Of a DNA stretch of 64,000 nt, positions 29,088 to 30,532 are shown piece by piece. The translations under genes were made by a program, and so were the position numbers. Location: the NCBI GenBank assembly GCA_016699425.1, contig CP064975.1, forward strand, positions 322,979 to 386,978. The letters run 5' to 3'. This stretch comes from Candidatus Moraniibacteriota bacterium (GTDB lineage: Bacteria > Patescibacteriota > Minisyncoccia > Moranbacterales > UBA1568). A model generated the notes under the pieces. That model saw nothing but the letters and a program-made list of their open reading frames with translations. It had not been told where the DNA came from and searched no databases. The number at the start of each line of letters is the position of its first letter. Position 1 is the first letter of the stretch.

Positions 29088-29150
29088 TCGGAAAAAGAAA
29101 ACCGCCCCGATACGTTCGCGATTGTTGCGCGAAGTATCCCTGAGGGCGGT
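29088..29150 (-). terminator. Strong intrinsic terminator for the minus-strand small-gene unit (possibly bidirectional)
   Basis: ACCGCCC-C-GATAC-G-TTCGCG-ATTGTTG-CGCGAA-GTATC-CCTGA-GGGCGGT. An 18-bp interrupted stem that on the minus strand is followed by UUUCUUUUUCC. Confidence 0.6.
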
Positions 29151-29164
29151 AATGCAGTCGGCAG

Positions 29165-29635
29165 TCAATTGACTGGCAGCTGAAAGAAGTCGATGCCGTA
29201 CGTGTAGATTCGCCCGATGGCCTCAAATGTAGCCGGAGGTCTCAGGACGCGTACCTCACAGTGCGAAAGAGCGCTGTAGCCGAGCCATCCGTGCCTAGGC
29301 TCGATAGCATGTTGCCGGATCACAGACCCGGTTATCTGGTCATTGGCGTTCTGGTCGATGATGATGGCATGCACAACTCTCGGAAGCCTTGGAACGCCAC
29401 TACCCTCACCTTCAATGATGCAAATGATGAGATCATTCGGCTGCGCGGTTCTGAGTACTTCCAAGTTCTGCGCCTGGTAGGTCGGTGTTGATACCACGCC
29501 GCTCTGCTGCCACATCTCAATACCTTTGCTAATACCTTTGCTGATGGCAAGTACTGCGATTGTCATCGCGGCAACGACACTCGCCATGATTAAGACCATC
29601 ATGAACGGATCTTTGTCACTAAAGCGTTTGGTCAT
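29165..29635 (-). CDS. Hypothetical protein, N-terminal single TM + ~110-aa extracytoplasmic domain (cassette 3 of tandem unit)
   Basis: GAGGAG 8 nt before the ATG, preceded by the repeated leader element. No recognisable domain. Confidence 0.5.
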   Translation of the reverse strand: MTKRFSDKDPFMMVLIMASVVAAMTIAVLAISKGISKGIEMWQQSGVVSTPTYQAQNLEVLRTAQPNDLIICIIEGEGSGVPRLPRVVHAIIIDQNANDQITGSVIRQHAIEPRHGWLGYSALSHCEVRVLRPPATFEAIGRIYTYGIDFFQLPVN

Positions 29636-29640
29636 GTTCA

Positions 29641-29720
29641 GAACTCCTCATTGGATGCCGGATCAATCCCTCCGGTATGGGTATTCAGTTGTTTAGGTAC
29701 GATTTCTGGATTTCCAGGCT
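29641..29720 (-). repeat. Leader repeat copy 1 (CUGGA-AA-UCCAG hairpin, ACCUAAACAA, CCGGAGGGAUUGAUCCGG hairpin, GAGGAG)
   Basis: Direct repeat shared with 30000-30095 and 30346-30432. Contains the stop codon of the upstream cistron. Confidence 0.6.
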
Positions 29721-29998
29721 ATCTGCTGTTTCAACCGGTACCACCAAAGCTTTGCCCAGTATCCACAACAGAACGCTATAAACGTACCGAATACCACGAA
29801 ACCAAATCGGAGGGTTGTGTTTGTCGTCTCTGGCGCGAGCTCACCGATGATGTTCCAGATCAGTATCACCACTAAGAACCAAGTGTGATGCAGCTTGGAA
29901 GCACCATGGTATATCGGTCGCACGGTGAGGTGCCCACAGACTCCGGAGAGTACCATGGCAATACCAATGGCGACCGCGGGTTGTTGAAGCAAGTCCAT
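29693..29998 (-). CDS. Small membrane protein, ~3 TM (cassette 2, diverged paralogue of cassette 1)
   Basis: AAGGAG 6 nt before the ATG, preceded by the leader repeat. Shares a weak pattern with the 30076-30345 product (M.L..., CG.L, W-F...LIW, AF..G). Confidence 0.5.
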   Translation of the reverse strand: MDLLQQPAVAIGIAMVLSGVCGHLTVRPIYHGASKLHHTWFLVVILIWNIIGELAPETTNTTLRFGFVVFGTFIAFCCGYWAKLWWYRLKQQIAWKSRNRT

Positions 29999-29999
29999 T

Positions 30000-30095
30000 C
30001 GAATCTCCTTGATCTACCGGATCGATCCCTCCGGAATGGGTTGTTCAGGTGTGACTATGTGGTTTCTGTTTGTCCTCAGGTTTTTCTGAGACCAT
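30000..30095 (-). repeat. Leader repeat copy 2 (CUCAG-AAAAAC-CUGAG hairpin, ACCUGAACAA, CCGGAGGGAUCGAUCCGG hairpin, AAGGAG)
   Basis: Same architecture as copies 1 and 3. Hairpin 1 has a different sequence but preserved pairing. Confidence 0.6.
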
Positions 30096-30345
30096 AAAGG
30101 AACGCTAGTGGCCCACCGATTAATATTACCGGAAGCTCGATATTCACATGGCTGATGGGTGACGATGTGGATACGAGGAGAACTTCCCACATCAGAACTG
30201 CCATCATGGGGAACCACCACCAATTCCCTATCTCCAGAGCGGGTCGCTTTCGCAGATTGTGTTCTTGTTGGACTAGACCGCAAAGCATGATGGTGATGAG
30301 GCCGAGGCTATCCATGAGGGTACAGATAATGATATCTGCAAGCAT
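30076..30345 (-). CDS. Small membrane protein, ~3 TM (cassette 1)
   Basis: AAGGAG 7 nt before the ATG. The C-terminal codons (LRKT-stop) run into leader copy 2. Confidence 0.5.
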   Translation of the reverse strand: MLADIIICTLMDSLGLITIMLCGLVQQEHNLRKRPALEIGNWWWFPMMAVLMWEVLLVSTSSPISHVNIELPVILIGGPLAFLYGLRKT

Positions 30346-30432
30346 TTTGTATCTCCTTGTTTCCCCCGGATCGGTCCCTCCGGTATAGGTGTTGAGTTCA
30401 ATTGTTCAGGTACGATTTCTGGGATTCCCAGA
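30346..30432 (-). repeat. Leader repeat copy 3 (CUGGG-AAU-CCCAG hairpin, ACCUGAACAA, CCGGAGGGACCGAUCCGG hairpin, AAGGAG)
   Basis: First leader of the unit, immediately downstream of its promoter. Confidence 0.6.
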
Positions 30433-30438
30433 ATGTGC

Positions 30439-30467
30439 ATACTACGTTTTATGTATTAATCTGTCAA
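30439..30467 (-). promoter_or_regulatory. Sigma70-like promoter on minus strand: TTGACA-17-TAGTAT
   Basis: Perfect -35 with a 17-nt spacer, driving the three-cassette unit. Divergent from the glyA promoter. Confidence 0.5.
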
Positions 30468-30488: not shown

Positions 30489-30517
30489 TTGCTATGATGG
30501 ATGTGCTTTGCTATATT
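30489..30517 (+). promoter_or_regulatory. Sigma70-like promoter TTGCTA-17-TATATT for glyA
   Basis: The -10 element ends about 15 nt before the glyA ATG at 30533. Confidence 0.45.
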
Positions 30518-30532
30518 CCTGACGACAGCGCT

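Follow-up and report, generated by a model that had tools for sequence, protein, structure and literature searches.

The stretch of DNA analysed here, 64,000 nucleotides (nt) of contig CP064975.1 from a Candidatus Moraniibacteriota bacterium (assembly GCA_016699425.1) and hereafter called the window, carries a short minus-strand operon between rmlD (rfbD) and glyA. Its three genes, ORF1 to ORF3 (ORF, open reading frame), are each preceded by a copy of the same leader, which contains a 24-nt core just upstream of the Shine-Dalgarno (SD) sequence. Sequence comparison identifies this leader as a previously undescribed cis element and the locus as a modular, strain-variable operon. The element recurs at the glyA-rmlD locus of related genomes, its core is invariant across species at a constant spacing from the SD, a hairpin upstream of the core covaries, and the cistron content of the operon is variable.

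The three genes form a minus-strand island in a window that holds 46 long ORFs on the plus strand versus 4 on the minus strand, and they are confirmed as described in the first-pass annotation. The same holds for the promoter proposed there, a sigma-70-type sequence with TTGACA at 30467-30462, a 17-nt spacer and TAGTAT at 30444-30439 (minus strand, as are all features of the unit), which matches at 10 of 12 positions; a TTGAC(A/T)-17-TATAAT-like promoter occupies the equivalent position in 10 orthologous loci. In leader 1, hairpin 1 (30417-30433; UUCUGGG-AAU-CCCAGAA) starts 5 nt past the -10 box, which puts it at the 5′ end predicted for the transcript. A conserved block located by pattern match (ACCUGAACAA, 30402-30411) follows, and then the first core motif (30366-30389), in which CCUAUA precedes hairpin 2 (CCGGA-GGGACCGA-UCCGG, 30383-30366). 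The SD of ORF1 (AAGGAG, 30353-30358) stands 7 nt ahead of the ATG, and ORF1 (30345-30076) is an accessory cistron and ORFan of 89 amino acids (aa) with three predicted transmembrane (TM) segments.

The core of leader 2 (30017-30050) comprises the ACCUGAACAA block (30050-30041), CCCAUU and hairpin 2 (CCGGA-GGGAUCGA-UCCGG, 30034-30017), followed by the SD (AAGGAG, 30005-30010) of ORF2 (29998-29693), a second accessory cistron of 101 aa with three predicted TM segments that is known only in close relatives. Leader 3 overlaps ORF2: a copy of hairpin 1 (CUGGA-AA-UCCAG, 29706-29717) lies within the 3′ end of that gene, and its core (29658-29698) starts with a block, ACCUAAACAA (29698-29689), that includes the ORF2 stop codon, continues with CCCAUA and ends in hairpin 2 (CCGGA-GGGAUUGA-UCCGG, 29675-29658). 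Behind the SD GAGGAG (29644-29649) comes ORF3 (29635-29165), the core gene of the locus, which encodes 156 aa predicted to form one TM helix and a small SH3/Tudor-like beta-barrel. The unit closes with an intrinsic terminator (29150-29091) whose GC-rich, interrupted stem of ~19 bp (29150-29101) runs into a U-tract (29100-29091). Its predicted fold of -28.2 kcal/mol (z = -2.85) and its counterparts in the orthologous loci L117, L005 and L028 confirm the strong terminator described earlier, which the internal loop of its stem had hidden from a simple scanner.

Neighbouring genes in the window encode HAD and NUDIX proteins, a membrane protein, RmlD, GlyA and two nucleotidyltransferases. The mechanically called glyA ORF (plus strand) begins with GTG at 30389, a start that would have it run through the promoter and leader 1 of the minus strand. 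Orthologous GlyA N-termini (MRHAILKK or MKHDILKK) place the true glyA start near 30530, and a promoter-like TTGCTA-17-TATATT at 30489-30517 (plus) indicates back-to-back divergent promoters.

Within the window the leader behaves as a specific element. The 18-mer CCGGAGGGAYYGATCCGG has exactly three copies in the 64 kb, even when three mismatches are allowed (0.41 expected), and the ACCTRAACAA block likewise has exactly three (0.18 expected). We built a covariance model on six leaders; run with filters off, it scores the window copies at 104 (leader 3), 75 and 43 (leader 2) bits, the next best match reaching 12. The repeated leader before each cistron is thereby upheld, and so is the expectation that it is not a dispersed repeat: the model finds only the three window copies, and the relatives of the element lie at the glyA/rmlD locus. 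The earlier failure to place the leaders in a known class also agrees with Rfam 15 (including preQ1, guanidine-I/II/III, fluoride and ZTP), which returned no family for them when the region was searched at E ≤ 10 and the window at gathering thresholds; the only weak Rfam matches are snoRNA-like, inside ORFs and on the other strand.

The three copies are not uniform. Over ~65 nt, identity between leaders 1 and 3 is 85-88%, leader 2 has in common with them the block and ~45 nt at the 3′ side, and the mean column identity of the three is 75%, with substantial differences outside the core. In leaders 1 and 3 the ACCT(G/A)AACAA block includes the stop codon of an upstream frame (...RNRT-stop). Since leader 1 keeps this frame as it stands at the end of ORF2, the leaders must derive from duplication of a gene end along with its intergenic region. 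Most promoter-proximal leaders retain (G/U)AACAA.

The core motif has the consensus 5′-CCYAYW-CCGGA-GGGAYYNA-UCCGG-3′ and stands ahead of each cistron. Its conservation was counted in an alignment of 20 model matches, of which 16 are distinct. The five base pairs of hairpin 2 are identical in all 16 distinct leaders, and 16 of its 18 positions are invariant, the rest being Y (two bases, always a pyrimidine) and a G that is once A. The loop GGGA and the final loop A never change, and within the flank CCYAYW on the 5′ side two C and one A are fixed as well. Between the same loci, the flanking leader sequence averages ~50% identity and glyA DNA 71-75%. Orientation is fixed across the orthologous leaders, where 6-9 nt separate the end of hairpin 2 from the SD and 17-22 nt separate it from the start codon. 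The cistrons that follow are unrelated in sequence: ORF1, ORF2, ORF3 and, in L029, a cytosolic ORFan of 209 aa.

A conserved leader peptide, with hairpin 2 read as P-E-G-x-I-R, was considered and rejected: the frame relative to the upstream block is lost and spacer lengths vary. By this comparison the module is a non-coding element. Pseudoknot pairing of the loop YY with downstream sequence was likewise discarded, its register being inconsistent among the leaders.

Inspection of the motif revealed GGAGG and (U)GAUCC, that is, the extended SD GGAGGUGAUCC split by 3 nt. No start codon lies at initiation distance from this GGAGG, as in a start-less SD; the sole nearby start-like triplet, a UUG 2 nt past GGAGG in leaders with YY = UU, is too near to initiate. 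The duplex of hairpin 2 with a 16S rRNA 3′ tail is predicted at -16 to -18 kcal/mol, a value that assumes a generic tail and not that of this genome. The self-fold of hairpin 2 is predicted at -7.1 kcal/mol, and the true SD regions reach -7 to -10 kcal/mol with the generic tail. By its pairing with this tail, hairpin 2 belongs to roughly the top 0.1-0.2% among the 18-mers of the window.

Hairpin 1 shows the opposite mode of conservation, with free sequence and kept structure. All six of its pairs carry compensatory changes, G-U pairs included, across the aligned orthologous leaders, with variants such as UUCUGG/CCAGAA, UUCCAG/CUGGAA, UUCAGAAU/AUUCUGAA and UUGGG/UCCAA. In this alignment, which was itself fitted to the model, 90% of cells are paired versus 16-60% in slid controls. 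Of 10 promoter-proximal leaders, 9 have the hairpin begin 4-6 nt past the -10 hexamer, the transcription start being predicted, and intercistronic leaders mostly do without it.

The first-pass annotation had described a covarying hairpin 1 in every copy; its covariation stands, but its presence in each leader does not. In leader 2 the candidate stem CUCAG...CUGAG (30090-30075) overlaps the ORF1 stop and lies ~23 nt farther from the ACCTGAACAA block, a non-homologous position, so that covariation within the window comes down to one compensatory pair, leader 1 versus leader 3. The hairpin 1 sequence of leader 3 equals the promoter-proximal hairpin of the one-cistron strain L002 and, by that identity, is a relic of duplication. 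Judged from its placement, hairpin 1 belongs to the promoter-proximal leader at the predicted transcript 5′ end and not to every cassette. By analogy, such a hairpin fits the class of 5′-terminal mRNA stabilisers, in which structure is kept and sequence is free.

To trace the element beyond the window, we scanned 185,579 species genomes together with metagenomes by DNA pattern. Some 140 of the ~150 genome and metagenome pattern matches are chance 18-mers in GC-rich genomes, and the leader model separates the two kinds, chance 18-mers scoring at most 25 bits and true copies 34-109 bits. In the genomes, true matches are confined to metagenome-assembled genomes (MAGs) of Moraniibacteriota and to one MAG labelled Bdellovibrionales (L005) that has the same glyA-rmlD locus; the 18-mer scan places them at one locus per genome, each at the glyA/rmlD spot. 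About a dozen loci with true copies are known: L001, L002, L003, L005, L025, L028, L029/L155, L080, L088, L117/L156, L152/L153 and L154. A phage origin was considered and rejected: a scan of viral contigs gave six matches, all by chance.

These loci share one architecture: a divergent glyA, then promoter, leader, one to three cistrons and a long-stem terminator, and a convergent rmlD/rfbD. The last or sole cistron is an ORF3 homologue in every locus recovered, and two lineages represented by more than 40 contigs have one cistron throughout. On this synteny, the unit is a conserved resident across Moraniibacteriota and not an insertion, with ORF1, ORF2 and the 209-aa ORFan of L029 as variable additions. 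The proposal of an accessory module inserted into a housekeeping context is therefore revised: a one-gene version is resident at glyA-rmlD, and the accessory part is limited to ORF1 and ORF2.

One stand-alone unit lies at another locus (L109 1546-1900, minus, identical to L147). It consists of a promoter, CCCAATT-CCGGAGGGATTTATCCGG, an SD, a gene for a 90-aa protein with three TM segments and weak similarity to ORF1 and ORF2, and a terminator. Its loop variant, GGGAUUUA, indicates that loop position 7 can vary, and its location implies that the module is not strictly bound to the glyA-rmlD site. The flanks of L109, read from translation, are presumably a PolB-type 3′-5′ exonuclease domain, divergent upstream, and an orotate phosphoribosyltransferase-like ORF downstream. 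Separately, in a Puniceicoccaceae MAG (L043 6588-6660, CAYYQG010000023.1), the intergenic sequence CACCTGAACGTAACCCATGCCGGAGGGATGGATCCGG is similar to leader 2 for ~36 nt, a span that takes in the block and the 5′ flank; a second stretch, GGAGGGATTCAAAGGATCC, follows, adjoining a tRNA gene and with no ORF behind it. The leader model gives this sequence 25 bits, and the tRNA is the sole Rfam match there. Chance, contamination and distant relationship are all compatible with the likeness.

The proteins themselves are of no described family, as had been stated: ORF1 to ORF3 have no match above noise in Pfam, NCBIfam, PHROG, PADLOC or PDB sequences, and the same protein family libraries hold nothing above noise for the 209-aa ORF of L029 or the L109 protein. 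That ORF1 and ORF2 are diverged paralogues, as first suggested, finds no support, since BLASTP does not detect homology between them (E = 0.09), though they are alike in having three hydrophobic segments and a basic C-terminus. Nor does any family match support the toxin/immunity or bacteriocin-immunity role once proposed for the unit. Class I holins would fit ORF1 and ORF2 in size, in their three TM segments and in their basic C-terminus, but neither protein matches a PHROG or Pfam holin.

ORF1 has a diverged partial homologue in L001. Among 1.84 billion representative proteins, a search for its homologues returned only ORF1 itself and protein P0012. The latter is almost certainly a compositional artefact, being the 986-aa translation of an 18-fold tandem repeat of 52 aa, with an E-value of 1e-18 that sums 18 weak matches to a W/F-rich segment. 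Homologues of ORF2 fall in one close cluster, at 88% identity. Comparison with its L029 homologue shows 5 synonymous and 13 non-synonymous codon changes, the latter mostly in the C-terminal third; with these counts purifying selection on ORF2 is not evident. In L029 and L155 the first cistron is the 209-aa ORFan (L029 2636-3265; L155 1614-2243). Its C-terminus (...QVVNQWCRRGHLERRGPKGSRTYRMS...) looks like a winged-helix domain; it has no Pfam or PHROG match, and in PADLOC JetA appears only at noise level (E = 0.049).

ORF3 is 100% identical to the hypothetical protein IPJ68_01755 of a Candidatus Moraniibacteriota MAG, and its profile collects 9 family members among 5.8 billion proteins, with two invariant cysteines (C72 and C126). 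The AlphaFold model (mean pLDDT 75, domain 80-93) starts with an N-terminal TM helix and a linker, continues with a further helix and a small SH3/Tudor-like beta-barrel, and ends in a C-terminal helix; no specific structural match for the SH3/Tudor-like domain was found. The gene neighbourhood is that of dTDP-rhamnose biosynthesis. A plausible guess is that ORF3 may serve as an extracytoplasmic binding domain, anchored in the membrane and exposed to diversifying pressure.

The public annotation of ORF3 starts at Met12 (145 aa, P0001; window 29603-29635). The 156-aa form is supported by GAGGAG 8 nt before the first ATG (29635) and by the conserved N-termini of orthologues. Within the gene, a perfect 12-nt tandem duplication (two copies of AATACCTTTGCT, window 29519-29542) encodes SKGISKGI; this in-frame repeat falls just past the TM helix, and P0002, P0003 and L117 have a single SKGI.

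Comparison of close strains revealed how variable the locus is. The glyA DNA of L002 and the window is 97.6% identical, yet L002 has one cistron versus three and lacks ORF1, and the C-terminal domain of its ORF3 homologue is only 47% identical to that of the window. N-terminal TM modules and C-terminal domains are differently combined in P0002, L029 and L117, which identifies the locus as a recombination mosaic. A diversity-generating retroelement was considered as the source of ORF3 variability and rejected, 47% aa identity across the domain being far beyond adenine-specific mutagenesis; no reverse transcriptase gene lies near the locus.

Several junctions fall at the core motif. The window shares positions 30041-29658 with L029 at 90% identity, a segment that begins ~7 nt 5′ of one hairpin 2 and closes with the 3′ end of the following one, and homology with L001 starts at 29682, again ~7 nt 5′ of hairpin 2. 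Breakpoints at the motif are also expected of RecA-type recombination, because the motif is the only ~24-nt stretch of perfect identity. The junction between the window and L002 lies in hairpin 1 and not in hairpin 2, which fits ordinary homologous recombination within the repeated leaders. In L117 (6283-6535) similarity to L001 and L002 is ~80-90% for the 3′ half of the leader and the initial ~190 nt of the ORF3 gene, versus 73% for glyA, and this contrast suggests a recent exchange of leader and N-terminal module between species.

We propose that the leader is a clade-restricted cis-acting RNA module of the translation initiation region, probably a start-less SD, that was copied before each cistron, a reading to which we give about an even chance. 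The ancestral state would be one gene, the membrane-anchored SH3-like ORF3 homologue, behind one module. In the lineage of the window two small three-TM genes, ORF1 and ORF2, would then have been added, each with a module copy of its own. Hairpin 1, at the extreme 5′ end of the mRNA, may shield the transcript from 5′-end-dependent decay, and the invariant hairpin 2 may put each cistron under common post-transcriptional control through an invariant trans-acting partner. Action at the RNA level, and the nature of this partner, we infer from the mode of conservation: a stem that never covaries beside one that covaries freely implies that each base of hairpin 2 is read by a protein or by an invariant trans-acting RNA. 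The favoured candidate is the 16S rRNA 3′ tail, with the module as a hairpin-locked start-less SD that would serve as a ribosome standby or loading site, or as a STAB-SD-like protective site, just 5′ of the true SD. A dedicated RNA-binding protein or a small RNA (sRNA) would be the alternative.

Several observations weigh against this proposal. Of the invariant hairpin 2 described in the first-pass annotation, the sequence is kept in all 16 leaders, but the 16 show no covariation, and folding is thus not demonstrated. Relative to shuffled sequence the leaders fold no better (z = -0.8, +0.8 and -0.05). An invariant inverted repeat is also what the site of a DNA-binding protein would look like. 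An element for ribosome loading in general should recur at many genes, yet the module stands at one operon. In the predicted fold the stem takes up the GGA of GGAGG, which leaves the sequence half-buried, unlike an accessible STAB-SD. The anti-SD tail is a generic assumption and not the 16S of this organism, and the model presupposes GGAUCACCUCC at the 16S 3′ ends of these genomes. Finally, ~11 independent lineages are known, with recombination at the locus, so that conservation could be inflated.

Read at the DNA level, CCGGA-N8-TCCGG would be bound by a dimeric protein, either as an operator or roadblock or as the core site of a recombinase that moves cassettes. Invariance of both repeat arms, with the variable positions inside the spacer, suits such a site, as do the one versus three cistrons of L002 and the window at nearly identical glyA DNA and the L029 and L001 breakpoints that meet the motif. 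Invariance extends, however, to the spacer GGGA and the asymmetric flank CCYA, orientation and SD distance are fixed, and the symmetry is limited to 5 bp, short of the arms of tyrosine-recombinase sites, which typically measure 9-13 bp. As no recombinase or regulator gene adjoins the unit and the window-L002 junction falls in hairpin 1, we consider a DNA site unlikely. That the module is purely a by-product of duplication or gene conversion, with no function beyond an ordinary ribosome-binding site, would account for the hairpin 1 copy of leader 3 that equals the single leader of L002 and for the ...RNRT-stop that leader 1 keeps in the frame of the ORF2 end. We regard this as highly improbable: the three in-genome copies differ outside the core (75% column identity), so gene conversion is not homogenising them, and the core is identical across species whose glyA DNA is 71-75% identical. 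A combination of RNA and DNA roles is conceivable but distinctly improbable, in which the 24 nt would act both as a hairpin-locked start-less extended SD for ribosome loading and as an identity stretch through which whole cistrons, as well as the N- and C-terminal halves of the surface protein, pass between strains and species by homologous recombination after DNA uptake. The locus would then be an integrase-free, integron-like system and a hypervariable envelope locus in the candidate phyla radiation (CPR).

Two further explanations keep the action in the RNA and differ in the partner. Known CsrA-repressed leaders have GGA in a hairpin loop and GGA in the SD, and the geometry here is comparable: A(G)GGA occupies the 5′ side of the loop, with another GGA in the SD 15-20 nt downstream (loop GGGA, SD AGGAG). 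An operator for a CsrA-like RNA-binding protein, or an sRNA target, in a small regulon would agree with the presence of the module at no fewer than two kinds of locus, glyA-linked and L109. CsrA sites tolerate variable stems, however, whereas this stem is frozen, and most genomes have no candidate regulator beside the locus, so that we hold this possibility to be quite unlikely. The riboswitch-like reading raised at first can be recast as a ~24-nt H-type pseudoknot in which CCY pairs with the loop GGG, stacked on the 5-bp stem, and gates the SD. All 16 leaders could form this 3-bp pseudoknot, the sole change (C to U) yielding a G-U pair; the 3-nt linker and 5-nt loop would sterically suit the H type, and high conservation beside the SD of small membrane-protein genes recalls the smallest riboswitch classes. 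Yet the change in the pseudoknot is one-sided, the helix of hairpin 2 is static, unlike usual riboswitch stems, and the SD lies outside any conserved alternative pairing: none that would sequester it was found, and the loop YY has no consistent covariation downstream. Among the downstream proteins no transporter or enzyme can be recognised, and Rfam has no match at E ≤ 10, which leaves a tiny riboswitch very doubtful.

To our knowledge, CPR/Patescibacteria are uncultivated and almost nothing is known of their post-transcriptional control; a module that is short, conserved, clade-specific, reused for each cistron and complementary to the anti-SD makes a tractable candidate. The diversity of the locus, in cistron number and in a domain at 47% identity versus flanks at 97.6%, is expected of envelope proteins in the host or phage interactions of an episymbiont. 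If the module provides only a strong local ribosome-binding context, the finding shrinks to a lineage-specific ORFan operon.

Known systems resemble the unit in part. Like an integron array, it has co-oriented cistrons behind one promoter, variable cassettes and a repeat at every junction; it differs in that the repeat lies 5′ of each ORF and includes the ribosome-binding site, and in having at most three cistrons. An integron/attC array was rejected: there is no intI among the window neighbours, the orthologous loci have equal neighbours, and the leaders contain neither RYYYAAC/GTTRRRY core sites nor a long imperfect palindrome, only hairpins of 5-7 bp. With preQ1-I and guanidine-II (mini-ykkC) the leader shares a short conserved SD-adjacent element before small membrane proteins and, in leader 1, a hairpin with an A-rich stretch. 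Its hairpin 1 loop of 2-4 nt, the absence of ACGR loops, the static hairpin 2 stem and the missing Rfam match set it apart, and a preQ1-I-like reading of hairpin 1 with its A-rich tail was rejected for the small loop and the lack of an Rfam match. CsrA/RsmA leaders likewise have GGA in a hairpin loop and in an SD shortly downstream; the stem here is frozen and the loop counts 8 nt rather than 5-6.

The closest parallels are the 5′-terminal stem-loops and STAB-SD elements, which a passage of PMC7509114 presents as established mRNA stabilisers, citing Emory et al. 1992 and Agaisse & Lereclus 1996. With the 5′ stabilisers of the ompA type and those of B. subtilis, hairpin 1 shares a position at the 5′ end, predicted here, and pairing that is kept as the sequence drifts; it differs in that one copy, that of leader 3, is operon-internal. 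With the STAB-SD or standby element of cryIIIA, as that passage describes it after Agaisse & Lereclus 1996, the core motif shares a start-less GGAGG in the 5′ untranslated region with strong predicted 16S pairing. The module differs in holding its GGAGG half in a 5-bp stem, 6-9 nt from the real SD, within an invariant motif of 24 nt that is longer than an SD and is repeated before each cistron.

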